Part shown: positions 3,726 through 26,512 of the stretch, piece after piece
How positions within the stretch are numbered: the first letter of the stretch is position 1
How the letters are laid out: each line of letters begins with the position of its first letter
IMG/VR virus record: IMGVR_UViG_2698536335_000001
Span: 1-26,512 of that record
Origin: a virus
Lineage: Duplodnaviria; Heunggongvirae; Uroviricota; Caudoviricetes
Direction: 5' to 3' (one strand)
DNA: 26,512 nt
The notes under the pieces: generated by a model
Databases searched by the model: none
Seen by the model: only the letters and a program-made list of their open reading frames with translations
What the model was told of the DNA's origin: nothing
Program-made: the position numbers and the translations under genes

Positions 3726-3778
3726 GTTAAATCTCCAGATAGTCGCAGCACCCGTTGCGCCGCATATCCGATTATTCT

Positions 3779-3845
3779 ATTACCTGAAAAACCATATATG
3801 GATAGGTAGACCATGAATACAAACAGATATTACCTTTCAGGTAAT
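3779..3845. promoter_or_regulatory. pair of inverted 11-mers ATTACCTGAAA (3779-3789) and TTTCAGGTAAT (3835-3845); the second is part of the 17-bp palindrome ATTACCTTTCAGGTAAT (3829-3845)
   Basis: Read directly in the intergenic region upstream of the tailspike gene; the same 17-mer recurs at 20444-20460. Confidence 0.35.
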
Positions 3846-3881: not shown

Positions 3882-3901
3882 TACTGTATAAATATACAGT
3901 T
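3882..3901 (+). promoter_or_regulatory. LexA (SOS) box TACTGTATAAATATACAGTT
   Basis: CTGT (3884-3887), 8-nt AT-rich spacer, ACAG (3896-3899); 18 of 20 positions match the E. coli consensus TACTGTATATATATACAGTA; 20 bp upstream of the ATG at 3921. Confidence 0.7.
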
Positions 3902-3920
3902 ATTGCATGGAGAAGATAAG

Positions 3921-4178
3921 ATGCAGCAGTATCACTATCCACTGGAAGACGGATTTACCGAAAGGATTCACACGCCGGGAGGCGTCAGGTCACTGGTGGA
4001 GGGATCGCACTTGATGAAATTACTCCGGGATCTCGATAAGGATGGATTTAATGTCGATGGCCCACTTGCCGAACTGACTGCACTGATTAACTACGTCACC
4101 AGCTCACAGATGTCTATGCAGGATCTGCAAACACATCTCGACTATTGTGCCAAACAATTACGAAAACAAATCACATAA
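3921..4178 (+). CDS. SOS-regulated hypothetical protein, 85 aa, acidic (MQQYHYPLEDGFTERIHTPGG...)
   Basis: ATG at 3921 with GGAGA RBS (3909-3913); the track start at 3903 is a TTG extension; LexA box immediately upstream; convergent with the virion operon. Confidence 0.6.
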   Translation: MQQYHYPLEDGFTERIHTPGGVRSLVEGSHLMKLLRDLDKDGFNVDGPLAELTALINYVTSSQMSMQDLQTHLDYCAKQLRKQIT

Positions 4179-4200
4179 AGAAAAGGCCGCGAAAGCGGCC
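4171..4200 (-). terminator. rho-independent terminator ending the minus-strand ejection-protein transcript
   Basis: ggccgc-gaaa-gcggcc hairpin (4185-4200) followed on the minus strand by TTTTCTTTAT (4171-4184). Confidence 0.55.
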
Positions 4201-4220
4201 TGTGACATGTCACGCTCACG

Positions 4221-8653: not shown

Positions 8654-11163
8654 TGCGGAATATCTCCGGAGAATCTCTGACGCTTCTGTGTCAGATCAAG
8701 AACAACAGGAGAACCATCATCTTTCAGCAGATAACCAGTACCAAGTTTCACCAGGTACTGACTATCGCCGTAACTTTGCAAACCATACTGACCAGGCGGT
8801 GTTTTTATCCCGGTGCCGACAACTTGTTCATTCCAAGCCTGATTAACCTGCTTATCGAATTGCTCTGCAGACATTCCCCACGGCAAAAGGACATTCCCCA
8901 TTCCGTTATAGTCATGCACGCCACCTGTAGCTACGTTAACAGCCTGTTTCCAGATATCAGTGTCAATTTCGCCTGATACCACGCCTTTTTTCGCCATCAC
9001 ACCAGCGTAATAGTCCTTTGCGATCTCGTATGCCATTGATGCCCCCTGAGCATCACCAGCAAATGCATCCTTCACCATGTCAGAAAACTCAAGGCGAAGA
9101 TCAGCATCTTTAGGCATCGGAATACCTTTCGCATCATCAGTACCTTTACGAGCCGCCGCGCCAGCAAGAATTGTCTGCGCAGCGGTTTCAGGAGACACGG
9201 AAACATCCGGATTAAACCAGTTTTTTTCTGCCAAAATACCACCAGGCTTGTCCATCAGTATCCCGGCAACGGCAGCAGATGGAGCGTTGGCACTGATCTG
9301 CTGTAGTGCTGACATATACACCTGCCCACCACCAGTGCTCTGCCTGATGGTATCGAGATATGCTGCCTGTTGGGAAACTGGAGCATCACGAAAGAAAACA
9401 CCGATCTGATTGGCCTCGTCTTTGGAAAAGAACGTCAGTGGAGTGCCATATGACTTAGCAAGGTCACTGACCTGAGCGGCACGCAAGGCAACGCTCTGTC
9501 CAAAGTTATCCTTATTGCTCATGTCGATAGGCTTTGCCTGTCCGGAGGAAAGAGAGAACTGCACAGGATCCGACTGCCGCTGCTTTATCACCTGATTTGC
9601 AGCCGAAACAACGTTGTCATAAAGAGCTGCGCGTGCCGCATACCCCTCCCCTGTATCACCAGTATCCGGGCGTAATTGCTCAACATATTCTGTAATGCTG
9701 CTTGTCGGCATGTTGCGGAAAGAGCCTATATACTGTCCGGCGATCTGCGTATTTCTGAACTCGGTATATCGCAGGTTTCCTTCTCTGACGCCATAAGCTG
9801 CAATAAAATCATCCTCACCAGGTGGGTTAGGAAATTCAACGCCACGCATATACGCAGCCGTCGCATCGCGAACCTTGCTGTCAATTATCGTTTTATATTC
9901 AGCCTGCTGCTGCCGACGCAGTTGATCCGCCTGTCGCATAAAACTTGCCTGAGCCTCAGGAGATGCCGCATCGAATGCTGCATTACCGGTATAGCGTTTG
10001 GTGTTGGTTGGAATTGTTGATAAACCAAGTGCTGCACTAACACCAGCAGTTAACTGCTGATCACTGTATGGCTGACTACCGTTCTCATGATGGATAATGG
10101 CTGCACAAAGCGCCTTCAGGGTATCAGGATTTGATGCATCGAGAGGCTCATCAGCAGAAACGCCAAGTTGTTCGCACACTGCTTTGATATACGACATAGT
10201 GTCATTTTTATCAGTAGGCGGTGCCCAGCGATTAATTATCTCGCTGACGGTATCGATACCCTGCCGCTGATACGACATCAGGTTACGCCCTAATGCACGA
10301 ATCCCGTGCTCAGGTGTTTCGAATTTAGCAAATCGACCATCATCACCGGTCTGGCCTACCCACGGATTAGTTTTGCTGTATTCGAGATTTCCTGGGTTAT
10401 TGTTGCGTATGCCACGGGCACGCTCGGAAGAGTCACTATCTGCTACAGCACGGCGAGCTCCAGCAGCAGTATCACTTAACTCGCCATTACTTTGGATGAA
10501 TGCGGTCGCATTGTTTGCCGACCACTGGGACAATGCGGCATCAGCAACCTTCTCTTTAAACTCGATTTTCTTGGCCTGGATTTGCTCGTCGCTCCAGCCA
10601 TGCGCAATGCCATAATCCTCAATTTGCTGGAAAGTTTGCTTATTAGCCAATACGTATGCGGCGTTGTCGCCATACAATGCTGCGGCATTTTTACCATTGT
10701 TCAGCAGCGTCGCCTGAAACTGGCCTTCTTCGTAGGCATTTATTTGCCCTATCTCGTGCCGCCCGGCCTGCGTAGTGAACTGAATGCGCTGCTGCTGCGC
10801 CTGCTGCATGAAAGCATTACGAGCCTGTTCATCCGGCAGCGACATAGCCAGTTGCTCGACCTGAGCATCAAACTGCTGCGTATACTCCTGACCTTTTCCA
10901 ATAGCATTTTTCCCTTTCAGGTTAAGCAAACCTGTTTCAGGGTTATTCAGCAGATCGCTGCTTATCTGGCTTAAGCTAAGAGAAGCATCCTGAGCCATAG
11001 CAACATTCGCACGCTGTTTTGCCTGCGCAATAATACCTGCATATTGCTCTGCAACATCGCCAAGTACATCACCGACATTTGGTGTCTGAAACGATGAGAA
11101 TCCCTGCGTCGAAATCCCTCTGCTCTGAACCTGACGGCCCGATGTTGTTGGTACAACTGGCAT
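8650..11163 (-). CDS. internal virion / ejection protein, 837 aa
   Basis: Position and size; contains the segment GIRNNNPGNLEYSKTNPWVGQTGDDGRFAKFETPEHGIRALGRNL, which I cannot assign. Confidence 0.75.
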   Translation of the reverse strand: MPVVPTTSGRQVQSRGISTQGFSSFQTPNVGDVLGDVAEQYAGIIAQAKQRANVAMAQDASLSLSQISSDLLNNPETGLLNLKGKNAIGKGQEYTQQFDAQVEQLAMSLPDEQARNAFMQQAQQQRIQFTTQAGRHEIGQINAYEEGQFQATLLNNGKNAAALYGDNAAYVLANKQTFQQIEDYGIAHGWSDEQIQAKKIEFKEKVADAALSQWSANNATAFIQSNGELSDTAAGARRAVADSDSSERARGIRNNNPGNLEYSKTNPWVGQTGDDGRFAKFETPEHGIRALGRNLMSYQRQGIDTVSEIINRWAPPTDKNDTMSYIKAVCEQLGVSADEPLDASNPDTLKALCAAIIHHENGSQPYSDQQLTAGVSAALGLSTIPTNTKRYTGNAAFDAASPEAQASFMRQADQLRRQQQAEYKTIIDSKVRDATAAYMRGVEFPNPPGEDDFIAAYGVREGNLRYTEFRNTQIAGQYIGSFRNMPTSSITEYVEQLRPDTGDTGEGYAARAALYDNVVSAANQVIKQRQSDPVQFSLSSGQAKPIDMSNKDNFGQSVALRAAQVSDLAKSYGTPLTFFSKDEANQIGVFFRDAPVSQQAAYLDTIRQSTGGGQVYMSALQQISANAPSAAVAGILMDKPGGILAEKNWFNPDVSVSPETAAQTILAGAAARKGTDDAKGIPMPKDADLRLEFSDMVKDAFAGDAQGASMAYEIAKDYYAGVMAKKGVVSGEIDTDIWKQAVNVATGGVHDYNGMGNVLLPWGMSAEQFDKQVNQAWNEQVVGTGIKTPPGQYGLQSYGDSQYLVKLGTGYLLKDDGSPVVLDLTQKRQRFSGDIPQ

Positions 11164-11715: not shown

Positions 11716-12179
11716 TATTTTCTCTCCATGTGAAATCTGTGGAAATTAAGACCAAGAGCACCATAAGGCGCGGCTTCTTCAAGCCTGAATCCAAGCCAGT
11801 GCAGCCATGCTTTGGCAACATGGTTTCGCTCGTCGACGTAGTTTTCCAGGCGCGGATAAACTGCCAGCATCTGCTGCAATACAGGGCGGCAGTGGCGAAG
11901 AAATGTCTTCTGATATTTTTCAATACGGCTGGTTCCTACCAGCCAGGGTGTACCATTGCCACCGATCATTGACGCCGGAGATACACCAAACATGGTTACC
12001 AGTTCTCCGTTCGCGAACCCTGACCAAGCCATAGTAGCAGTGCGAAGACCAACACGCAGCGCATCTTCGGTAGTCATCAGCGATACCGCATACAGTTCGT
12101 CAATATCAGCCTGACGAACATCCGGCAAAATCATCTGAAGATGCTCTTCGGTAGCGGGAATAATTTGAACGTCGATCAT
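11715..12179 (-). CDS. hypothetical virion-associated protein (T7 gp13-position), 154 aa
   Basis: ATG overlaps the upstream TGA (TGATG), indicating coupled translation within the operon. Confidence 0.7.
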   Translation of the reverse strand: MIDVQIIPATEEHLQMILPDVRQADIDELYAVSLMTTEDALRVGLRTATMAWSGFANGELVTMFGVSPASMIGGNGTPWLVGTSRIEKYQKTFLRHCRPVLQQMLAVYPRLENYVDERNHVAKAWLHWLGFRLEEAAPYGALGLNFHRFHMERK

Positions 12180-13495: not shown

Positions 13496-14649
13496 CAGCG
13501 AACCAACATCATCAGGTGGCGGATCTCATTAACCTGACGCCCGGCATAGGTGTAGATAATTCTGTCGTCATCCTGCGTAGGATTGCTTTTGCCAAAATCC
13601 TTATAATCCCCAGTACGGCTGGCCCAGATAGTCTGAGGGAACGCAGTCGATGCGGCGAAGTAAAGACGTTGTTGATAATAAACAACAGTGCCAGGATAAC
13701 CGTTAATACTGTTCCAGGCATATTTAGCCCATTTATAGCTGGCATTATCCTCGCCAACTACCTGCGAAGGGATATAGGAAATCACCTCGGCAGTTGCAGT
13801 AGTTCCATTTGCAGCAGAGATACGGGCAATGCCAAAACCACTGTGCAGATATTCCCACTCAATGCCAGTATCATCATCACCGGATCCGCCCCAGCCATCC
13901 CATGATGTGCCTTCTGTATGCGAAGGGCGCAAAGTACCTGTTTTGCCTGCTGTAACGGCGCGATAGTAGTTACTGTCTGCACGGCGAATATCGCCAATCG
14001 ACGTACTCTTACTGGTTTCCCATACCGGCACTGAATCCACTGCAGGCTGTTCCAGATAGAACAATTTGCCTACCTGCTCCGCGCCAAAAATAGAGGCGCT
14101 TGCCGTTAACGTAATTGTCCCGGTGCTGGCGCTGGCATAAACCGTCACTGACTCGTCAATATTGATATCTTCAAATGGCCCGTTCTTCGTTACCACATCA
14201 ACCAGTTGCCAGTTGTCATGCGCATAGCGGCGCAACTCTTTCGGCGGGTATGCCGGGTGAACCAGCGTAAGCACGTCGGCGCTTTGCGTGAATTTAATTC
14301 GGAACAGATCGGCTTCAGTATATGGCGTGGCAATTTCATAAATAACATTGCTGCTGTTCAGCACCAACGCACCATCTTTGATAACGCGCATGTACTGGTG
14401 TCCGAACTCCAGAGCATAAGTCTGAACCGTCGAGAACTGGAACGGGATCAGACGGCATTTCCGATTTGGGTATTTGGCGGCACCGACAAAACGCGTACCA
14501 GGTCGATTCTCAACGCCGCCATACTGCCGCACGATAAAGTTATCGCACTTGCGCAAAGCCACCTGGTACTTCGCCATGTCGATACGACCGTACAACGACG
14601 GTCCAATCTCACCACCGGCAAAGCTGGGCTGGATCCAACTGATAGCCAT
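13486..14649 (-). CDS. tail tubular protein B-like (nozzle), N-terminal portion
   Basis: ATG overlaps the stop of the gp11-like gene (ATGA); combined length with 12179-13495 is about 825 aa, close to T7 gp12. Confidence 0.65.
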   Translation of the reverse strand: MAISWIQPSFAGGEIGPSLYGRIDMAKYQVALRKCDNFIVRQYGGVENRPGTRFVGAAKYPNRKCRLIPFQFSTVQTYALEFGHQYMRVIKDGALVLNSSNVIYEIATPYTEADLFRIKFTQSADVLTLVHPAYPPKELRRYAHDNWQLVDVVTKNGPFEDINIDESVTVYASASTGTITLTASASIFGAEQVGKLFYLEQPAVDSVPVWETSKSTSIGDIRRADSNYYRAVTAGKTGTLRPSHTEGTSWDGWGGSGDDDTGIEWEYLHSGFGIARISAANGTTATAEVISYIPSQVVGEDNASYKWAKYAWNSINGYPGTVVYYQQRLYFAASTAFPQTIWASRTGDYKDFGKSNPTQDDDRIIYTYAGRQVNEIRHLMMLVRWWR

Positions 14650-18458: not shown

Positions 18459-20134
18459 TGTGATTGCCCACCCTGACCACTAACTGCATTCGCCATAGCT
18501 GACAACACACTCGGATCCGAAGTTTTAGCTTCGCTTAGCGTCTTGGCCCCCTGTGCCGCCGCCATCCCCATCGCCATCATTTGTTGCTGCTGTTGTTGCT
18601 GTGCCCGTTGCTGGCGAGCCTGCTCAACCTGTTCCTGCGGAACAATGACGGTTGGAGACACTCCGGACATATCAGCGAATGCATCGATCGCCTGATCAAC
18701 GTTGAGTTTGTCGAGAGCTTCTGGTTTCGCTTGCGCAAGTTGACCAATGAAGTTAACCGTGGACGCCAGACTGGACAGGCCGATAGACTTCTGCGCCTGA
18801 GCCATGACGGAAATGTATTCGACCTTCAGGGGCATGCCTTCCATCGCGTCAGGCGGTGGCGGCAGCATGTTTTTACGCACCATCATCGAGAAAGCGCGGT
18901 CAATGAGAGGATTAAGACATTCGTCGTTCAGACGCTCCAGAACCGGCCCCAACATCAGAAGTTTTTCTTCTTTCATTTCGATCACCGCTTCAACAGGCAT
19001 CGAGCGGGTATTGATGTTCTGCAACATCATGAACAGATCGACAAAGTAGGCGCTGTTAATGATTTGACGAGTGTCCTGAATGTCTGCCACCAAATCTGCT
19101 GTACTGGGGTTAACCAGATAAGCAGGCCTGAAGCCATCCTGACCAGTAATCTGATCGATATACGTGATGTCGCCAGGAAGAAGGGAGGCGCGCTGATTCT
19201 TGAGGGAAGTCGGAGCAACCATCGGCGGATTGGTGGCTTTATCAATCAACTGCGACTTGCGCTTCTGGAGAAGCTGCAATGCCTTAACAGGTCCAAGCGC
19301 CAGCATACCCGGGCATGATGATCCATAAACATCTTCGCCGTTAACTTCCCAGCGCGGAGCCATAATTGGAAACTCATCGAATCCGGACTCACGCAACAAC
19401 TTGTCGTTATCGCCACCAACCTCGTAATAAACCGATTTGAATGGCTTGTTCTTGCTATCCAGCTTCGATGTGTCGCGGTCAATATTCGGGTAAACCGAAT
19501 GCATCACTTCAATCCACTTCTCGTAGGTGCCGCTTTCCCACATGCTTTTTACGGATTCGCTGACGTTATTTAGCCCGAACTCCTGAACAAGCTGACGAAC
19601 AGTCATAGAGAACTTGCGAAAACAGGTGTCCACACTGCCACGAGGTGAGTTAGCCAGGTAGTAACTACCAATCGGGAATGGCATTGTGCGAATGATGTCC
19701 TCGTCATCCTCCAGTACCGCCATTGCACCGGTGCTGTATGTGCCGAGGCTTCCGTATAACTGCGGAAGAGACTGGTAGAGATTCGACTTATTGAACATAT
19801 CGTTCATGCGGTTCTGCACCGCCTCAAGCCACAACTTAACAGGGCCATAATCCATCATTTCAGGATCTGGCGTAGCCAGGCGAAACCACGGACGGGCGGG
19901 GCTTGTGATGCCTGACATCATGCCGCTGGCGAGAGTGCGCGCCGCCATAGTCCCGGTCGAATCAATAATGCGTGTATTGCGTCGATCGTTACGGTTGACC
20001 TCAGAAGTCAGAAAGCGGGAACCACGCGGGTTGATGTAATCACTCAACTCGCGCCAGTGCGGCTCGAACGACTGACGCTCGCTTTCAAGTTGTGCGAACT
20101 GTTTGTTCAATCGCTCTTTAGTTGTTTCCGCCAT
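18455..20134 (-). CDS. portal (head-to-tail connector) protein, 559 aa
   Basis: Size and position between terminase and scaffold; GGAG RBS. Confidence 0.8.
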   Translation of the reverse strand: MAETTKERLNKQFAQLESERQSFEPHWRELSDYINPRGSRFLTSEVNRNDRRNTRIIDSTGTMAARTLASGMMSGITSPARPWFRLATPDPEMMDYGPVKLWLEAVQNRMNDMFNKSNLYQSLPQLYGSLGTYSTGAMAVLEDDEDIIRTMPFPIGSYYLANSPRGSVDTCFRKFSMTVRQLVQEFGLNNVSESVKSMWESGTYEKWIEVMHSVYPNIDRDTSKLDSKNKPFKSVYYEVGGDNDKLLRESGFDEFPIMAPRWEVNGEDVYGSSCPGMLALGPVKALQLLQKRKSQLIDKATNPPMVAPTSLKNQRASLLPGDITYIDQITGQDGFRPAYLVNPSTADLVADIQDTRQIINSAYFVDLFMMLQNINTRSMPVEAVIEMKEEKLLMLGPVLERLNDECLNPLIDRAFSMMVRKNMLPPPPDAMEGMPLKVEYISVMAQAQKSIGLSSLASTVNFIGQLAQAKPEALDKLNVDQAIDAFADMSGVSPTVIVPQEQVEQARQQRAQQQQQQQMMAMGMAAAQGAKTLSEAKTSDPSVLSAMANAVSGQGGQSQ

Positions 20135-20355: not shown

Positions 20356-20423
20356 ATCAATGACTCCGTACGCAATTAAATTATTACCAATTTAACCACA
20401 TATGATTTATTTATCGTAGATAG

Positions 20424-20461
20424 TTGACATTTAACGCACAAATTATTACCTTTCAGGTAAC
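20424..20461 (+). promoter_or_regulatory. candidate promoter (TTGACA at 20424-20429, 17-bp spacer, TACCTT) overlapped by the 17-bp motif at 20444-20460
   Basis: Perfect -35 hexamer read directly; the -10 is weak; the 17-mer TATTACCTTTCAGGTAA is identical to the copy at 3828-3844. Confidence 0.3.
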
Positions 20462-20782
20462 CAAAGAGTTCATTCCGGTTACTAACCTGACTGGCTTGTC
20501 GTTAAATTGAACAGGTGGAGTGAGCTTTTATTTTGAGCAGTACGGCGTATGGCACATGCGCCGATAGCGGTCTGGATACGTTTAAGGGGCACCCTCCCTT
20601 GCTCGGGCAAACGAACCAGGTAGCCGGAATGTGCAAGTCGAGCGGTTTTATTCCGCGCACGGGGATTCACCATCCCGGCGATTCGGTGTGACGCCTCGGA
20701 AGAGACGAGGGTACAACGATGAGAGCATTTATGGAGCCGCGACAAAGTGTGGCGCCTTAACAGGCTAAGTGCTCTCAGCGTT

Positions 20783-20859
20783 GTGGCATTAGCTCAGTTG
20801 GACAGAGCAACCGCCTTCTAAGCGGTTGGTCGCAGGTTCGAATCCTGCATGCCACGCCA
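20783..20859 (+). tRNA. tRNA-Arg, anticodon TCT (reads AGA), 77 nt with encoded CCA
   Basis: Hand-folded cloverleaf: acceptor GTGGCAT/ATGCCAC, D arm GCTC/GAGC, anticodon stem ACCGC/GCGGT with loop CTTCTAA, T arm GCAGG-TTCGAAT-CCTGC; similar to but distinct from E. coli argU as I recall it. Confidence 0.9.
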
Positions 20860-20902
20860 GAATCACGCCTAAGGACCGTGATGCCAGAAGTTCCAGGGGC
20901 TT

Positions 20903-20945
20903 GGCGGTGATGGTTTCCCTTGAAGGACTATCACCGCCCTTTTTA
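20903..20945 (+). terminator. hairpin plus T-run downstream of the tRNA
   Basis: 9-bp stem ggcggtgat (20903-20911) / atcaccgcc (20930-20938) followed by CTTTTT. Confidence 0.5.
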
Positions 20946-21022
20946 CAGCAGGACGCCATTGCGATGACTTCATGCTGTAAACCAGTACAGCCACGGAAGG
21001 CATAACTCATTGCTTCCAGTTC

Positions 21023-21046
21023 GCCCGGTTCGCCGGGCATTTTTTT
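21023..21046 (+). terminator. GC-rich hairpin with seven T residues, abutting the RBS of the gene at 21063
   Basis: gcccgg-ttcg-ccgggc (21023-21038), A, then TTTTTTT (21040-21046); AAGGTGA RBS follows at 21047-21053. Confidence 0.6.
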
Positions 21047-21062
21047 AAGGTGAGATTAGACT

Positions 21063-21434
21063 ATGAGTGACAAAGACATTGAATCTGAAATTCAGGCTAA
21101 AGGTTTAGCCGCGCCGCGCGTTACGCCAGACCATATCGAGAGCATTATTGCTCAGGAGGCATATTTCACAGCAGAAGATGGTTCCTTTGGCGTAGCCATA
21201 AAAGCGAAACATACTGGCGGAGAGGTAAACTACCAGCCGCACGAATCACTTTCTCTGCTGACGTTCTGCGTCCTGGTGCTGCGCAACGGCTTCACCGTCA
21301 CCGGAGAGAGCGCCTGTGCAAGCCCGGAAAACTTTGATGCAGAAATTGGTCGGAAGATTGCCCGACAGAATGCTGTAAACAAAATCTGGATGCTTGAAGG
21401 TTACTTGCTGAAGCAGAAGTTAAGCGAGCAATAA
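21063..21434 (+). CDS. moron-encoded hypothetical protein, 123 aa; possibly N4 gp49 / Sf6 gene 66 family
   Basis: Strong RBS; segment LRNGFTVTGESACASPENFDAEIGRKIARQNA resembles the conserved core of that family as I recall it; opposite strand to the virion operon. Confidence 0.6.
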   Translation: MSDKDIESEIQAKGLAAPRVTPDHIESIIAQEAYFTAEDGSFGVAIKAKHTGGEVNYQPHESLSLLTFCVLVLRNGFTVTGESACASPENFDAEIGRKIARQNAVNKIWMLEGYLLKQKLSEQ

Positions 21435-21454
21435 CACCGTGACATATCACAAAC

Positions 21455-21481
21455 AGCCAGCCTATGAGCTGGCTTTGTTTT
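21455..21481 (+). terminator. hairpin plus T-rich tail after the moron gene
   Basis: agccagc-ctatga-gctggct (21455-21474) followed by TTGTTTT. Confidence 0.5.
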
Positions 21482-21524
21482 ATCCTCATCAGAGGATATC
21501 AACAACATTATCCCCTCAAGCGGA

Positions 21525-23000
21525 TTAAGCATAGGGATCGTAATCTGTGATGGCCTTGCCTTGCTGGTTCTGCTGCCCGGGAATTCGCAGACGCTTAGAC
21601 ACAGGGAACGCAAACGTCAGCAGTAGCGCATCGCCTTTACCCGGAGAACGCCCAAGCCGCTCTTTGATATCTTCCTTCGGTTCGATAACGATTTTACCGT
21701 CCACTCGAACTTTGTACTCTGCCGCCGACAGGTCGTCCGCTGTTTCCTGGTCATCCAGCATGCCGCCCAGCCTCAGCCATGTCTTACATGAGTTGAACAT
21801 CTCCCCACGCTTGTTAAGCATCTGCGGGTCAGTGGACGCACCGCCGAACGGAACAAGTTGCCATGTACGTCCCCAGCCATCACCGATTGACTTCAAACCG
21901 GTTCCGTAACCGAAGTCGATGAACACCGCGTCAGCCTGGTACTGGTCTTCAAAGTCAGCGATACGCTTCGCCATAATCAGATCGTCGGTGGTCTTGTTGC
22001 CGGTCCACAGCACCTTACTGTGCAGCCCCTGCCGCAGGTATATCACCGCGTCATCAACACCGGAGTATGCAGGGTCAACGCCGATTATCACCGGAGCATG
22101 TGCCACCTGCGCAGCAGTTACCACCCGTTTCATTGCCTCGTCAGTAAGACCGGTAGGGATAAACTGCAATTCAGATGCATCAGGGAATATGCCGCGCACA
22201 CGGATTTTAACGAAGTCGCTGTCTTCCCCGTAGTCATCAACCCATTTCTGCAACTGCTGTTTGTTAGTGCCTTCCACCGTCCGGCTGTCAATCTGCGCAG
22301 TTTTCCAGCGGTGTTTATACTTGCGGAAACATTCACGGAATCGCCCGGTATTACGCGTAGGGTTTCCGAACGCCACCCAAATAATCTCAGTGTCTTCGTC
22401 CGTAAGCGCACCCTCGGCAACTTCCCACACCAGATCCGCAATGTTCGACGCTTCATCAAACACCACGATGATGCGTTTGCGCTCGTTGTGTAGTCCGGCG
22501 AATGCCTCAGTGTTGTGCTCAGACCAGGGGATTGCGTCAGCCCGCCACCGCTTGTCGTGCCCAGGATCATTGCTGTACATCGCGGTAGCGGTACAGGTAA
22601 ACCAGTCTTTCGTGATAGCAAGGTTCGACCACTTGATAATTTCCGGCCAAGTCTTCGTTCGTAGCTGGTTGTCGGTGTTGGCGGTCACCACGACCTTACA
22701 ATCCTCGCAAGTGGACATGCCCCAGTTGATCAGCATTGAGATGAATGCGGATTTACCAATACCGTGACCAGAAGCACGTGCCAGCATAAGCGGCTGATAT
22801 CGCGTCTCTGGATTCTGCAGGTGATCACGTATCTCTCGGAACGCATCGGCCTGCCACTGACGTGGACCGGTGGCATGTGCCAGTTCAGTACCCTCTTCCC
22901 CCCACGGGAACGCATAGAGGGCATAGCCAAGCGGATCGTGAGTGAACCCTGCAATATCCTCGATTAACTGCTCTTCAGGAGATAACACTGTATCTGTCAC
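21525..23000 (-). CDS. terminase large subunit, 491 aa
   Basis: Walker A-like ASGHGIGKS and Walker B-like IIVVFDEAS in the N-terminal ATPase region, acidic nuclease-like C-terminal half; start overlaps the small-subunit stop. Confidence 0.85.
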   Translation of the reverse strand: MTDTVLSPEEQLIEDIAGFTHDPLGYALYAFPWGEEGTELAHATGPRQWQADAFREIRDHLQNPETRYQPLMLARASGHGIGKSAFISMLINWGMSTCEDCKVVVTANTDNQLRTKTWPEIIKWSNLAITKDWFTCTATAMYSNDPGHDKRWRADAIPWSEHNTEAFAGLHNERKRIIVVFDEASNIADLVWEVAEGALTDEDTEIIWVAFGNPTRNTGRFRECFRKYKHRWKTAQIDSRTVEGTNKQQLQKWVDDYGEDSDFVKIRVRGIFPDASELQFIPTGLTDEAMKRVVTAAQVAHAPVIIGVDPAYSGVDDAVIYLRQGLHSKVLWTGNKTTDDLIMAKRIADFEDQYQADAVFIDFGYGTGLKSIGDGWGRTWQLVPFGGASTDPQMLNKRGEMFNSCKTWLRLGGMLDDQETADDLSAAEYKVRVDGKIVIEPKEDIKERLGRSPGKGDALLLTFAFPVSKRLRIPGQQNQQGKAITDYDPYA

Positions 23001-23593
23001 TGATTACCATCCTGACGTTCTTTGAGTCGCTTCCTGGCTGCTGCTATGCGATCAGCAATTGTCACATTCACATTAACATCCAGGCGTTCTTTGAATGCGT
23101 TGACGTCGACGTGCTTACCAATCAGTTCGAGGTTCTTCACCTTGTCAGGCCATTTAATTTTTTTGAGGATTGTCTCTATCGAATCCTCGTTCATGTTCAT
23201 GATGGTCGATGACAGATCAAAGCCGCTAAGCGTAGTGCGCCAGATTTTCGGCCACTCGCGGATTGGCTTAAGGCTCCCATCGTCGTTGAGGATGTCGATC
23301 ACGTCCATCTGGTCGATCTCCACCAGGCGCATGAGAACGTAATCAGCACTGACGCGCATTCGTTTGTTGCGCTCCTCCATCAACTCGGCAATCCGTTTTT
23401 GAATGCGTTCATCGCGCATCATGACACTGGCTTTAACTGCCGCTGTATTTGGGGAGAATCCTGCATTAATCGCTGCCTGAGTCTGGTTTTCAGGCGTTTT
23501 GATGTATGACTGGCAATAAGCCTCCTGCATTGCTGTTAGTGGCTTAAATTGCGTTGATTTGCGTTTATAGGTTTTAGGTTCAGCAGGCATCAT
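22997..23593 (-). CDS. terminase small subunit, ~198 aa
   Basis: Immediately upstream of and overlapping the large subunit; helix-rich basic protein; ATG at 23593 (track start 23671 is a TTG extension running through a terminator and tandem repeat). Confidence 0.65.
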   Translation of the reverse strand: MMPAEPKTYKRKSTQFKPLTAMQEAYCQSYIKTPENQTQAAINAGFSPNTAAVKASVMMRDERIQKRIAELMEERNKRMRVSADYVLMRLVEIDQMDVIDILNDDGSLKPIREWPKIWRTTLSGFDLSSTIMNMNEDSIETILKKIKWPDKVKNLELIGKHVDVNAFKERLDVNVNVTIADRIAAARKRLKERQDGNQ

Positions 23594-23596
23594 AAC

Positions 23597-23632
23597 CACC
23601 GTGGTAATAGTTACCGTTGTGGTAATAGTACC
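23597..23632. repeat. tandem direct repeat, two copies of ~18 bp, core GTGGTAATAGT at 23601-23611 and 23619-23629
   Basis: Read directly: accgtggtaatagttaccgttgtggtaatagtacc, between the terminator and the terminase small-subunit start. Confidence 0.5.
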
Positions 23633-23662
23633 ATGCAAAATAAAGCCGCCATAGTTGGCGGC
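23631..23662 (-). terminator. rho-independent terminator upstream of the terminase genes
   Basis: gccgcca-tagt-tggcggc (23645-23662) followed on the minus strand by TTTATTTTG; 6 nt after the stop of gene 23668-23901. Confidence 0.6.
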
Positions 23663-23667
23663 AGTAT

Positions 23668-23901
23668 TCAAAGTCCATCAAATTCATCGTAAAAACTCTC
23701 GTCAAGATACCCTTCCCATTTACCGCGAATGAAAATTACATCCTCGCCGCAAGGGTGCTGACTGTCGATAACTATATCCCTCCTGGCGCAACCATACTTA
23801 TGCATGAGAAATTTAACCTCTTTCGGAAAATTTGCTGAATTATCTCTCATATCTTCAAGGTCGTAGCGTATTTTTGGCATAACACCTTCGTGACATGTCA
23901 C
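23668..23901 (-). CDS. hypothetical protein, 70-77 aa
   Basis: GTG at 23901 overlaps the upstream TGA (GTGA) or ATG at 23880; no recognisable motif. Confidence 0.5.
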   Translation of the reverse strand: MTCHEGVMPKIRYDLEDMRDNSANFPKEVKFLMHKYGCARRDIVIDSQHPCGEDVIFIRGKWEGYLDESFYDEFDGL

Positions 23902-24245
23902 ACTATTAATTTCGTTTCATGCCAGCCTTTAGTCACCCAGCATTGCGAGTCACCATTACACGGGCATGAATTAACGGGAACTCTCTCGCCGCACTTACCG
24001 CAAAGTTTTCTGCTGATCGATTTTATACGCCCGCGCACACGTGCATCATCCTGGCGGATCAGCAGCGCGATGTACTCGGCCATTTCATAGGGATCGCGAC
24101 CAGGGCGCCGGGCGGCGCAGTTCCGCGCCAGCATTTCCTGCTCCTGCTTATCCAGCATCAGTTCAATTTTGCGCTCACCGGCGGCGGACTGCCGAGCGCG
24201 CTGCGCGGCTTTGCGTTCTGCGGGGGATTTAGCCACGAATCGCAC
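23898..24245 (-). CDS. hypothetical protein with C-terminal Cys-rich zinc-ribbon-like motif (CGKCGERVPVNSCPCNGDSQC); start uncertain
   Basis: Basic N-terminal half, five Cys in 21 residues near the C-terminus; track start is GTG. Confidence 0.5.
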   Translation of the reverse strand: MRFVAKSPAERKAAQRARQSAAGERKIELMLDKQEQEMLARNCAARRPGRDPYEMAEYIALLIRQDDARVRGRIKSISRKLCGKCGERVPVNSCPCNGDSQCWVTKGWHETKLIV

Positions 24246-24351
24246 TCCACGCCAGATTGATTAATGACTCCCAGGCAATATAAACCCGGATACCAGCAGC
24301 CAGGCCGAAACCAATCACCATGGCATAAAGCAGAGCGTTGCACTTGTTCAT
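24229..24351 (-). CDS. small hydrophobic protein, 40 aa (MNKCNALLYAMVIGFGLAAGIRVYIAWESLINLAWSAIRG); absent from the ORF track
   Basis: ATG shares a base with the upstream TGA (TGATG) and is preceded by AGGAGG; one hydrophobic helix; overlaps the uncertain start of 23898-24245. Confidence 0.3.
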   Translation of the reverse strand: MNKCNALLYAMVIGFGLAAGIRVYIAWESLINLAWSAIRG

Positions 24352-25085
24352 CACTTCACCTCCTGCGGCGGTTCCGGTAGCGGCATCCAGTGAGTTGCTT
24401 GCTCAATACCATTACCCGGCTTAATCGTTGCATCTCCGCGCCGAAAGGTGCTTCCGGTATAGCGTGCGGAGCATATTAGCGGTTCAACCAGAGAGCTATC
24501 GAAATTCACCGAAATAAGCACGTTCTGGCCCTTTTCAGGCATTCGATCACTACAGCTTATCCAACTATCCGGAGTTCCCGGAGAGTTGCCATTTACATCG
24601 AAGTTTGGCTCTGCGTCCTGAACCAAGAGGATGTAACCATTCTTGGCTGTATCAAGTTCTAACGCTTCGGTGACGGTGCCGAAATAGCGATTACCTAAAT
24701 CAGCATCACAAGTGCTTATATCAATGGAAACTTCCATGCCTTCGATTAATTCTGGCAAGTTGTAAGTTTGGCTTACAGGTTGGCTACCCTGAAGCATGGC
24801 GGCGCGGTGACACCAGATAATCCAGCCAAGCGCCATATCCCATGCCATGTATTCTCTATCGCCATTTTTTGCCCTACGGCGATCTACAGATTCCCCGAAA
24901 CGCTTCTCCATAAATAATTCATAGGCTGCTCGTTCATCCGATACTGCTGCCAGTGATGCCAGTGCAATTTTTAATGCGGTAAGCATGTTGTTTTGATCTT
25001 CATCGAGTCCGAACGGTATTTCATCCCGTGCTGACTCAATGCTGGTAATCGTGTTCTGTAACCATTCTTTGGTAAGAGTATTCAT
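24351..25085 (-). CDS. nin-region-type protein with DUF551-like C-terminus (…HWMPLPEPPQEVK), 244 aa
   Basis: C-terminal W-x-P-L-P-E-P-P motif recalled from DUF551 proteins of lambdoid phages; N-terminal ~15 aa shared with gene 25281-25748. Confidence 0.65.
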   Translation of the reverse strand: MNTLTKEWLQNTITSIESARDEIPFGLDEDQNNMLTALKIALASLAAVSDERAAYELFMEKRFGESVDRRRAKNGDREYMAWDMALGWIIWCHRAAMLQGSQPVSQTYNLPELIEGMEVSIDISTCDADLGNRYFGTVTEALELDTAKNGYILLVQDAEPNFDVNGNSPGTPDSWISCSDRMPEKGQNVLISVNFDSSLVEPLICSARYTGSTFRRGDATIKPGNGIEQATHWMPLPEPPQEVK

Positions 25086-25087
25086 AA

Positions 25088-25279
25088 CTATTTCACCTTA
25101 ATCTCAACATTTCGCAGCTTTAGCTCTACTGGCAAGTCTGACTTTCCTGTTAATGCTAATGCGAGATTTTCAGGAGTAATGAGAGCTGTTATTGTTTTCC
25201 CCATCGCCAGACGAATAATCATTCGTATCTCGCGATCGTCACATGCTCCCGGTCGAACAATTGATATTTGTCCGTTCAT
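25088..25279 (-). CDS. hypothetical protein, 63 aa
   Basis: ATG at 25279 with AAAGGAGAG RBS, one nt after the upstream stop; track start 25300 is a TTG extension. Confidence 0.5.
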   Translation of the reverse strand: MNGQISIVRPGACDDREIRMIIRLAMGKTITALITPENLALALTGKSDLPVELKLRNVEIKVK

Positions 25280-25280
25280 C

Positions 25281-25748
25281 TCACTCTCCTTTGATGCCAA
25301 TGTTTACAGCCTGACAAGCCTCTTTGAGCACCCAGTCAACAGCGTCTTTCCATGCTCCGGTTTCGACTGGCGGATTTTCACTCTTAACCTGTTCATAGAA
25401 GCGCACCGCTTTAATCAATCCTTCGGGTGTCAGTGGCACAGGCTGGGCCGTGAATAACGCCTGAATTTCATAGTTCGGCCTGTCGTTGCAATTCTCTTTT
25501 GTCGGTACATATTTCCAGTCACCAACCCACGGCTTCTCCTGAAAGTTCGTAACGCCTTTTCTCACGTAGCGATATCGCCATGTCACCGGTTCGGCTTCCA
25601 GCGATACCAGCGCGACTTTAAATGCGGTAAGTACGTTTTTAACCACATCGATTTTAAATACTATTTCATCACATACAAACGATTTATCGTCTACTACCGT
25701 TTCAATTCCGGTAATCGTGTTTTGTAGCCATTTGGTTAATTCAGCCAT
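25281..25748 (-). CDS. hypothetical protein, paralogous N-terminus to 24351-25085, 155 aa
   Basis: MAELTKWLQNTITGIE versus MNTLTKEWLQNTITSIE at the N-termini; C-terminal parts differ. Confidence 0.65.
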   Translation of the reverse strand: MAELTKWLQNTITGIETVVDDKSFVCDEIVFKIDVVKNVLTAFKVALVSLEAEPVTWRYRYVRKGVTNFQEKPWVGDWKYVPTKENCNDRPNYEIQALFTAQPVPLTPEGLIKAVRFYEQVKSENPPVETGAWKDAVDWVLKEACQAVNIGIKGE

Positions 25749-25894
25749 TTTTCATTACCGCCCTTTCGGGCGGTCTCCTGATGTTCTGAGGGTGCAGGAA
25801 TCCCTCCGGTTAAGGATTAAATTTTATTTACAGAACTGAATTTAATTATTCAGATATACGTATCTGTAACCTTACGAACCTACTCACTGGATGC
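25749..25894. promoter_or_regulatory. AT-rich intergenic region with inverted repeats: CTGAAT-N6-ATTCAG (25836-25853) and hairpin ccgccc-tttc-gggcgg (25758-25773)
   Basis: Read directly; lies between the methyltransferase stop and the start of the next minus-strand gene. Confidence 0.3.
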
Positions 25895-26368
25895 CTATTT
25901 CATAAAAATAATCCAGTGGGTTTTATCGTTTTTTCCTGTTCGTTGACCGATAACAGGTTTTCTGTCGGTCAGTACCAATATCTGGCGAACAGGTATTTGC
26001 GTTTCATTCCATTTAAAAATCAGAACTCCGGATGGACGCAACACACGAAAGGCTTCTTTAAATCCCTGCCGCAAATCATCACGCCAGGTATCTTTATTCA
26101 GCCGTCCATATTTCTTTCCCATCCAGGCGTTATCACCAACACGCTCAAGATGCGGAGGGTCGAATATAACCATCGAAAAAGATGCGTCTGCAAATGGTAG
26201 TGCACGAAAATCAGCTATCAGATCAGGACTGATAATCAGGCGTCGTCCATCACACAATGTGTGCTCTTCCTTTCTGATATCGCTAAATATCGCCCGGTCG
26301 TCATTCTTATCGAACCAGAACATGCGACTGCCACAGCACATGTCGAGGATTGCTGCATGTCCAGTCAC
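25895..26368 (-). CDS. small phage-type DNA methyltransferase (Dam-like N6-adenine class), ~157 aa
   Basis: Motif I-like ILDMCCGS followed by the catalytic-type VIFDPPH (DPPY-like) motif; GTG start at 26368 with AAAGGAGG RBS; the track ATG at 26401 has no RBS. Confidence 0.65.
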   Translation of the reverse strand: MTGHAAILDMCCGSRMFWFDKNDDRAIFSDIRKEEHTLCDGRRLIISPDLIADFRALPFADASFSMVIFDPPHLERVGDNAWMGKKYGRLNKDTWRDDLRQGFKEAFRVLRPSGVLIFKWNETQIPVRQILVLTDRKPVIGQRTGKNDKTHWIIFMK

Positions 26369-26512
26369 TGGCTGCCTCCTTTGCGAAGCCGTTCCGCCCA
26401 TTCTTCAAGGGATTTCTCTGCATATTCACCGGACAGGCCATCAATCGGATGCGATTCATTAGCTAACTCTTCTTTTGCTGACAGAATCATGCGTGTAACG
26501 TCGAAAACTTCA
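26365..26512 (-). CDS. 3-prime end of a hypothetical ORF continuing beyond the window (…ELANESHPIDGLSGEYAEKSLEEWAERLRKGGSQ)
   Basis: Open frame from the window edge to TGA at 26365-26367, overlapping the methyltransferase GTG start. Confidence 0.4.
   Translation of the reverse strand, partial: EVFDVTRMILSAKEELANESHPIDGLSGEYAEKSLEEWAERLRKGGSQ

Follow-up and report, generated by a model that had tools for sequence, protein, structure and literature searches.

Two adjacent 17-bp palindromes, designated O1 and O2, are located between the early-right operon and the small terminase gene terS in the DNA analysed here (26,512 nt in total, referred to as the window). Judging from their sequence, it is likely that they form a pair of operators for the lysogeny repressor Rep, and that Rep bound over a candidate promoter and the Shine-Dalgarno (SD) sequence keeps the terminase silent until the antirepressor Ant acts. 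Their motif is identical to that of the operators at the repressor gene and is conserved in relatives, homologues of Rep and Ant are encoded, and the region is non-coding. The feature is thus real but ordinary: the orthologous site is already annotated in phage epsilon15, and what was perceived as a tandem repeat is explained without a new mechanism.

Genomic context of the tandem repeat

The window is an epsilon15/phiV10-like (Uetakevirus) E. coli prophage whose late genes are encoded on the minus strand. A search with 1.1 kb of sequence surrounding the feature matched phiV10, TL-2011b, EC.W1-9, Tyrion, VB_ST_E15 and Klebsiella relatives, as well as 702 E. coli records; the match to one of these E. 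coli genomes was 99.9% over 1101 bases. In this E. coli genome (L105) the prophage is integrated beside guaA. The repressor gene lies outside the window; it and the early half of the prophage were read from L105, which is referred to below as the matching prophage.

In the region of interest, the early-right operon gives way to the terS-terL packaging operon. The terS gene (22997..23590, minus strand) encodes a small terminase of 197 aa (MPAEPK...; Pfam Terminase_2, E 1.4e-29), and the ORF located 3' of it encodes the large terminase. On the upstream side, the last gene before the terminator is a small accessory ORF of the phrog_1541 family (23668..23880, minus strand; E 2.9e-39), which encodes 70 aa from the ATG at 23880, ends with the TGA at 23670..23668 and is annotated by PGAP as a CDS in the matching E. 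coli genome. It is a variable insert between the regulator gene, described further below, and terS: TL-2011b, phiV10, Tyrion and epsilon15 lack it or have a reduced form, while its position is taken by other ORFs in Klebsiella and in two further relatives (L007 and L009). An Rfam search of the whole window returned a tRNA-Arg only.

The 11-mer copies are halves of two palindromes

The sequence confirms an earlier observation, namely that two copies of an 11-mer in an 18-bp register precede terS. A repeat search detected two exact copies of GTGGTAATAGT after the hairpin, with a start-to-start spacing of 18. The first copy, tACTATTACCAC (plus-strand positions 23619-23629), is preceded by GCATGG and separated by AACGG from the second copy, tAACTATTACCAC (plus-strand positions 23601-23611). 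On the minus strand, the order after the T-tract of the terminator is GCATGG-TACTATTACCAC-AACGG-TAACTATTACCAC-GGTGGTT-ATG-ATG, with the two ATGs at 23593 and 23590.

Such a repeat alone is not evidence, since pairs of this kind arise by chance: in 52 of 300 simulated 26.5-kb sequences (17%; first-order Markov model) at least one exact 11-mer was repeated within 40 nt, and the window itself contains a second exact 11-mer pair at 8870/8890. We consider the repeat as real because it is conserved across genera and because it matches an operator weight matrix derived from other sites. The 11-mer copies correspond to the left halves, with flanks, of two adjacent 17-bp palindromes, which are predicted operators. 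O1 (23610..23626, minus strand; ATTACC-ACAAC-GGTAAC) holds the first copy and O2 (23592..23608, minus strand; ATTACC-ACGGT-GGTTAT) the second. The distance between them is 18 bp, centre to centre, and O2 shares bases with both the SD sequence GGTGG (23600..23596) and the first ATG. With a weight matrix built from the non-terS operators only, O1 scored 19.5 bits, the third best value in the window, while the maximum over 50 shuffles was 14.9 bits. O2 is weak; its 8.1 bits are the fourth best value in the window and fall within the range of the shuffles.

Predicted Rep operators elsewhere in the prophage

The motif TATTACC was found nine times in the window versus 2.1 expected, with intergenic pairs at 3.8, 20.4 and 23.6 kb, and ATTACC-N(3-8)-GGTAA was found at three intergenic loci (four strand-specific matches versus 0.06 expected). 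The best site in the window, ATTACC-TTTCA-GGTAAT at 3829..3845 (26.8 bits), is a predicted Rep operator; it occupies the gap from which the tailspike gene and ant diverge, and is accompanied by one more half-site at 3778-3784. A further predicted operator, ATTACC-TTTCA-GGTAAC at 20445..20461 (21.5 bits), is located in the gap that precedes the portal/structural operon, together with the extra half-site TATTACC at 20382-20388. The orthologues of both in epsilon15, at 19895-19911 and 2931-2947 respectively, are annotated repressor sites. Six instances of TTACY-N5-RGTAA, versus 0.07 expected, were counted in the 20-kb early half of the matching prophage, and each of them is intergenic. Predicted operators are located there at 11045 and 11107 on the PL side of the repressor gene, at 11819 on its PR side, and at 14150 and 14212 before the next rightward unit; the sixth is the site at terS. 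Altogether, at least nine intergenic loci of the prophage contain the motif, and they cluster at the repressor gene.

This distribution makes the repeats poor candidates for a packaging or late-activator site, since they are specific neither to the terminase nor to the late genes. It had been proposed that the small terminase itself may bind them. In such a case TerS would recognise the repeats to start packaging, comparable to the pacL boxes of SPP1 or the R sites of lambda cosB. The repeats are indeed directly upstream of a terS of the Terminase_2 family, and several phage records open within approximately 100 bp of the feature. However, the record starts vary between phages and look conventional rather than physical, and at least nine intergenic loci with the same palindrome, including those of the immunity region, are not packaging-specific. 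We give this explanation almost no credence, and a pac or terminase site was rejected as a candidate on the grounds that the motif is genome-wide and not unique to the packaging origin. Our search yielded no packaging-end data, and the papers on ZX5, on PAS61 and on the packaging of epsilon15 mention neither packaging ends nor the sites described here.

The components needed for the preferred reading, namely control by Rep, are present in the prophage. The repressor of the matching prophage (WP_000836290.1) aligns in full length with Rep of phage SPC32H (PDB 5D50_A, E 4e-42). The product of the gene at 3921..4178 (plus strand) matches chain E of PDB 5D50 ('Anti-repressor protein'; E 2.6e-46) and is an SPC32H-type antirepressor, Ant, and a perfect LexA box, TACTGTATAAATATACAGTT, was read from the sequence 5' of ant at 3882-3901. 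A 17-bp palindrome with an N5 spacer, copies of it on both sides of the repressor gene, and a cognate Rep and Ant are therefore found together. According to a paper that reviews the work on SPC32H (PMC9638917), SPC32H Rep acts as a tetramer on palindromic DNA sites, and one tetramer is enough for repression. The 18 bp between O1 and O2 are close to the 17 bp of the OR pairs mentioned below, and it is a reasonable inference that a single Rep tetramer may span both palindromes. The label repressor site is based on the GenBank annotation and on the genomic distribution of the motif, and from these we infer that Rep physically binds at O1 and O2. A Cro-like protein could share the ATTACC-N5-GGTAAT sites.

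Conservation of O1 and O2 in relatives

The region was aligned across eight genera (E. coli, Enterobacter, Salmonella, Klebsiella, Pseudocitrobacter, 'Ca. Erwinia', Scandinavium, Superficieibacter, Pseudescherichia and Buttiauxella). The invariant bases are TG-TA-TATTAC...GTAA...TT...G-T-A...ATG, while the 5-nt spacers between TTACC and GGTAA are free to vary and indels of 1-2 nt occur between the units. This combination of variable spacers and indels with invariant halves argues for two palindromic protein sites. The consensus in the relatives is ATTACC-N5-GGTAA(C/T) for O1 and (A/T)TTAC(C/T)-N5-GGTAA(C/T) for O2, and the internal N5 of O2 is kept even where indels of 1-2 nt move O2 relative to O1. 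O1 scores between 16.5 and 28 bits in all relatives. At the position of O2, the second-best site was found in 10 of the 11 relatives, with 5-18 bits; it is lost in Klebsiella ST512-KPC3phi13.3.

The close-relative set comprises 78 near-identical prophages with identical TerS. A scan of IMG/VR gave only TerS-identical loci, which are informative on microevolution and uninformative on diversity. Among the 78, the feature did not hold up as an exact repeat, the 11-mer pair being gone in 33, but it held up as palindrome half-sites, which are unchanged: substitutions are located in spacers and flanks, with none in TTACC/GGTAA of O1 or in TTACC of O2. A more distant prophage of Samsonia contains ATTACC-GCGCC-GGTAAT together with two further copies of GATTACC in a different arrangement.

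The terminator upstream of O1

The earlier note also stated that a strong hairpin with a U-tract ends the upstream early operon. On this point the terminator scan, the RNA fold and the annotation of epsilon15 agree. The predicted intrinsic terminator (23637..23662, minus strand) consists of the stem GCCGCC (23662..23657) / GGCGGC (23650..23645) with the loop AACTAT, and the T-tract TTTATTTT at 23644..23637 is directly 3' of the stem. The scan reported a stem of 7 pairs, 6 of which are GC, with TTTATTTTGC after it, and the hairpin RNA folds with -16.2 kcal/mol (z = -4.4), a value equalled by none of 200 shuffles. A GC-rich stem, a short loop and an immediate U-tract are the sequence features of a rho-independent terminator. 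The hairpin is kept in 9 of 11 diverse relatives, and its orthologue in epsilon15 (39646-39672) is annotated as a rho-independent terminator in RefSeq. Based on these data, the early-right operon ends in a convincing predicted intrinsic terminator.

A candidate promoter overlapping O1

A scan of positions 20500-26512 for canonical -35/-10 promoters revealed nothing in the gap between the terminator and terS. The earlier statement that no sigma70 promoter fits there is therefore correct for promoters of the -35/-10 type, but it overlooks a conserved extended -10-like element, TGnTAsTAT. In the window this candidate is TGG-TACTAT (23625..23633, minus strand), and the last two bases of its hexamer are the first two of O1. 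The TG is positioned one base 5' of a hexamer with A2 and T6, as in an extended -10. TGnTA(C/G)TAT is invariant in the 11 relatives and in the 78 close relatives, and it is retained even in L007 and L009, in which a gene for a UmuD-like protein stands in place of the hairpin and all the sequence beyond is unrelated.

A comparable arrangement is found at other promoters. PL of the matching prophage, TTGACA-17-AATCAT/TACC, has a perfect TTGACA, and its hexamer AATCAT shares its last two bases with the start of ATTACC; the promoter at 14.2 kb (TTGATT-17-TTTAAT/TACC) as well as a TATAAT/TACC site show the same register. The invariance of TGnTAsTAT, together with an operator register that it shares with the -10 hexamers at PL and at 14.2 kb, suggests that TGnTA(C/G)TAT abutting O1 is a candidate Rep-controlled extended -10 promoter. 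As a working promoter, TGGTACTAT is a candidate only. It would be a weak extended -10 over O1, with a transcription start inside O1 and a leader of approximately 25-30 nt containing GGTGG. There is no -35, and four of the six bases of the -10 hexamer match. Further, a CATATGTGGTT box is common to the portal, tailspike and lysis units, while terS is without it; this implies that terS may be expressed differently.

Based on these elements, the following scenario is proposed. The GC-rich hairpin and its U-tract would end early-right transcription, and a regulatory cassette would begin directly 3' of the hairpin, in the order TGG-TACTAT, O1, O2 and start codon. O1 and O2 would serve as adjacent operators for Rep, a palindrome-binding tetramer of the SPC32H/epsilon15 gp38 family. 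In the lysogen, Rep on O1/O2 would occlude the weak extended -10 promoter, the hexamer of which extends into O1, and would also cover the ribosome-binding-site region of terS at the DNA level, leaving the terminase silent. Upon SOS induction, the LexA-controlled Ant would strip Rep off all operators together, O1 and O2 included. Since Rep operators are placed immediately in front of the packaging, structural and tailspike units, a single antirepressor can release the entire lytic programme at the same time.

The main rival of this scenario dispenses with the promoter. Rep on O1/O2 could act as a roadblock, in a manner similar to a stoperator, which stops leakage through the terminator, and terS would then be expressed, once the prophage is induced, by read-through out of the early-right operon. 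The missing -35, the weak -10 and the lack of the CATATGTGGTT box that is found at other late units are in line with this possibility. The same applies to L007, L009 and a Klebsiella phage, in which the gene adjoining terS upstream has a Rep-independent LexA-box promoter; in L007 and L009, which are without the terminator hairpin, O1/O2 would be the sole barrier to such transcription. However, read-through does not account for the TGnTAsTAT element, with its invariance, its position outside the operator consensus and its PL-like -10 register, and a strong terminator just upstream would have to be overcome. To our knowledge, no antiterminator has been described for these phages. We consider the roadblock unlikely and prefer occlusion of a promoter by Rep. 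In applied terms, the cassette from 23592 to 23662 is a natural terminase control point for the engineering of reporter phages of the phiV10 or epsilon15 type.

Start of TerS and structure of the leader RNA

The start codon of terS at 23590 is conserved in 14 relatives, and an alternative ATG is located 3 nt upstream, at 23593. In Tyrion, GGTGG is annotated as the ribosome-binding site, 5 nt before the conserved ATG, which is used as start; this short TerS is also the annotated form in TL-2011b, epsilon15 and SPC32H. A long TerS of 224 aa, starting at the TTG at 23671, is given by PGAP (WP_001090120.1) and for phiV10 and VB_ST_E15. In 6 of 14 relatives the frame of the resulting extension, GTITTTVTITTVV, is interrupted by stop codons or by 1-nt indels, whereas the motif is retained at the DNA level. 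In-frame stops were found 1-13 codons upstream in L007, L009, L011, L013 and L015, and an in-frame TAA in the Klebsiella phage; a coding function of GTITTTVTITTVV is ruled out by these stops and frameshifts. Moreover, the Terminase_2 domain begins only at residue 45 of the long TerS. The interrupted frame, the later onset of the Pfam domain and GGTGG at the conserved ATG substantiate the earlier suspicion that the N-terminal extension is an artefact. The 224-aa model of PGAP and phiV10 is probably 27 residues too long and reads through the terminator and the two operators.

A role of the repeats at the level of mRNA was also considered: by pairing within the terS leader they would make the SD sequence and the start codon inaccessible and so exert translational control. 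The 57-nt leader folds with -20.7 kcal/mol (z -4.1), and ACCAC pairs with the SD sequence GUGGU. However, tandem palindromes fold by construction, and RNAalifold on the 11 relatives retained the O1 palindrome only, with a covariation term of +0.14 and no compensatory changes in the long-range pairs. In addition, a transcription start inside O1 would leave the 5' arm out of the mRNA. In Rfam, the terS leader had no match. The leader structure is stable here but without covariation in the 11 relatives, and it was rejected as the primary explanation; that it governs terS is hardly conceivable.

The Cys-rich regulator and an associated palindrome

Upstream of the small accessory ORF, the gene at 23898..24245 (minus strand) encodes a Cys-rich protein of 112-115 aa belonging to phrog_536 'transcriptional regulator'. 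It was previously considered, together with late-gene activators in general, as a possible binder of the repeats. In this case the Cys-rich 115-aa protein, or another phage activator, would switch on the terminase operon from the repeats. The regulator gene ends the early operon just before the late genes in epsilon15-like and in Vibrio phages, and the candidate promoter is without a -35, as in activator-dependent promoters. Against this, O1 and O2 follow the -10-like element and reach over the SD sequence instead of being placed at -40 to -70, and the motif is not late-gene-specific, being present also at PL and PR. The gene of the Cys-rich protein travels with a different palindrome, GTGAC-NN-GTCAC, also in phage groups without ATTACC sites, and a P2-like Yersinia phage has this protein family alongside a regulator in the Ogr position. 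Activation from the repeats is thus highly improbable, and a late-activator site of the Ogr or Mu C type is disfavoured by its location and by the occurrence of the motif outside the late genes.

The Cys-rich protein had no sequence match in Pfam, NCBIfam or PDB. Its AlphaFold model has a pLDDT of 65 and is confident only for the helices 30-43 and 52-76, with the Zn-ribbon part unmodelled. A Foldseek search of the model against PDB returned no significant match; the best weak matches include the ribbon-helix-helix antitoxin AtaR. Given the mediocre model and the lack of significant structure or sequence matches, a ribbon-helix-helix fold stays a guess. Matches to the regulator in Chlobot and ATCC 8739 are gene remnants in lambdoid prophages and were set aside as uninformative.

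In the window, the palindrome GTGACATGTCAC (23890-23901) overlaps the stop codon of the Cys-rich gene. GTGAC-NN-GTCAC at or overlapping the stop codon of the regulator gene was also observed in epsilon15-like phages, in N15-like phages (phiKO2, PhiR46_1 and MStein-2023a), in the P2-like Yersinia phage and in the Vibrio phages VPHZ6 and 10N.237. In Vibrio phage K233, 226 nt separate it from the upstream regulator gene and 31 nt from the downstream terS. The regulators of the palindrome-bearing phages do not agree in their C-terminal residues. Epsilon15 contains exactly three copies versus 0.12 expected, all three at 3' ends of operons, and SPC32H has an additional copy with one mismatch at the end of the lysis operon. 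In the epsilon15-like phages the palindrome recurs by the terminators which end the terS-terL, structural and lysis operons, and in the window the hairpins at 4184-4200 and 21455-21474 have copies at a distance of 1-4 nt.

From this pairing, GTGAC-NN-GTCAC is probably the regulator's own site. It is tempting to speculate that the hairpin before terS belongs to a set of terminators at operon ends, each with this palindrome as partner, and that the regulator, bound to its palindrome, modulates termination at operon ends by roadblock or read-through, including at this hairpin, but we regard this as a doubtful proposal. If true, the regulator and its palindrome would supply the missing early-to-late timing device, on top of the control by Rep. 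The regulator-palindrome pairing is the only new lead of this analysis.

Comparison with known systems

The closest counterpart is epsilon15. In its record (NC_004775.2), palindromes at 12-27, 2931, 19895, 32479, 32554, 32616 and 35906 are annotated as 'protein_bind: repressor, lysogeny', this annotation being itself a prediction. The site at 12-27, 20 nt ahead of terS, is the orthologue of O1. Three of the annotated sites are beside the repressor gene, and others are located before gp3 and the tailspike units. As in the window, the early-right end of epsilon15 has a terminator followed by a 16-17-bp ATTACC-N5-GGTAAT site 20-35 nt before terS. The epsilon15 record lists one site before terS, while the second one, equivalent to O2 (29-45), is unannotated. 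The E. coli prophage differs by its right halves GGTAAC and GGTTAT and by the 70-aa ORF inserted upstream.

SPC32H, the member of the group that has been studied by experiment (Rep-Ant lysis/lysogeny switch; PDB 5D50/5D4Z), shares with the prophage full-length homologues of Rep and Ant, and it contains the same palindromes around rep and before terS. In epsilon15 and SPC32H, OR consists of two palindromes 17 bp apart; the OR sites of the E. coli prophage, in contrast, do not show this 17-bp distance.

In lambda, OR1-OR2 and OL1-OL2 are adjacent 17-bp palindromes which overlap a promoter and bind the repressor cooperatively, and O1/O2 resemble them as adjacent 17-bp palindromic operators over a candidate promoter. 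Lambda CI does not bind at the late genes, the control of which is indirect, through Q, whereas the predicted operators described here are directly before the packaging, structural and tailspike units. Moreover, induction would occur by an antirepressor and not by RecA-mediated cleavage.

Repeats at a terminase gene are also known from packaging origins: pacL of SPP1 and the R sites of lambda cosB are short repeats at the 5' end of the small-terminase gene (terS/Nu1). Those repeats are unique to the packaging origin, whereas the motif described here is genome-wide and concentrated at the immunity region.

Repressor sites spread over the genome, including the late regions, are reminiscent of mycobacteriophage L5, in which the scattered 'stoperators' of gp71 reportedly extend to late regions, so that genes beyond the immunity region are also silenced (Brown et al. 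1997). The L5 stoperators are asymmetric 13-mers, approximately 30 in number and orientation-dependent, which act on elongation. The sites in the prophage are, in contrast, palindromes, approximately ten per genome and mostly in promoter-like settings.

Start of the small terminase gene and its neighbours

The 224-aa reading of TerS, the small terminase (window 22997-23671, minus strand), is the model found in PGAP (WP_001090120.1), phiV10 and VB_ST_E15, and its TTG start overlaps the stop codon of the upstream ORF. Because this reading crosses the terminator and both predicted operators of the lysogeny repressor Rep, the true start probably lies 27 codons further downstream.

Between terS and the upstream gene for the Cys-rich regulator (phrog_536), the accessory genes differ from host to host. 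The window has a 70-aa phrog_1541 ORF in this slot, Klebsiella (L006 2855-3170) an 85-aa relative, and the Pseudocitrobacter and Erwinia prophages (L007 1036-1442; L009 1061-1441) a UmuD-like gene. In Klebsiella and in L007, the gene in this slot has a LexA box of its own. A consensus LexA box, TACTGTATAAATATACAGTT, precedes ant, the SPC32H-type antirepressor gene (together window 3882-4178, plus strand; 5D50_E match, E 2.6e-46), which is divergently oriented to the tailspike gene.

A palindrome accompanying the Cys-rich regulator gene

Across epsilon15-like, N15-like, P2-like and Vibrio phages, the phrog_536 gene is accompanied by the 12-bp palindrome GTGAC-NN-GTCAC, which usually overlaps its stop codon and is probably the binding site of the regulator. 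In epsilon15-like phages it recurs at operon 3' ends, beside terminator hairpins. Copies are located at 23890-23901, 21439-21450 and 4202-4213 in the window, at 2142, 19517 and 39612 in epsilon15, and at 2145, 19634, 26696 and 38629 in SPC32H; other phages carry it at L103 3824, L107 7292, L109 2746, L110 2763, L111 2758, L112 2827, and L102 3999 and 6714.

Rep operators, the associated box and operator spacing

The portal, tailspike and lysis units, as well as one or two early-right units, are preceded at a distance of 25-65 nt by the sense-strand box CATATGTGGTT: in the window at 20394-20404 and 3790-3800 (both minus strand), in epsilon15 at 2988, 24751 and 35953, and in the matching E. coli prophage (L105) at 14196 and 12227. 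A distal Rep operator lies about 40 nt before the box, and a proximal operator or GGTAATA half-site follows after 5 nt. The box may serve as an activator site or belong to a promoter; unlike these units, terS lacks it.

On the plus strand of the window, a TTGACA promoter-like site (20425-20430) is overlapped by a Rep operator. Between this operator and tRNA-Arg(TCT) at 20783-20859 are about 320 nt (20461-20782, plus strand) with neither a convincing ORF nor an Rfam match. A leader under Rep control is one possible role for this stretch ahead of the tRNA gene, a small RNA another.

Pairs of Rep operators or half-sites are repeatedly 62-63 bp, approximately six helical turns, apart (L105 11045/11107 and 14150/14212; epsilon15 32555/32617 and 35907/35969; window 20382/20445), which suggests that the repressor tetramer forms loops. 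In contrast to this spacing, the operators in OR of epsilon15 and SPC32H, and those at terS, are spaced by 17-18 bp.
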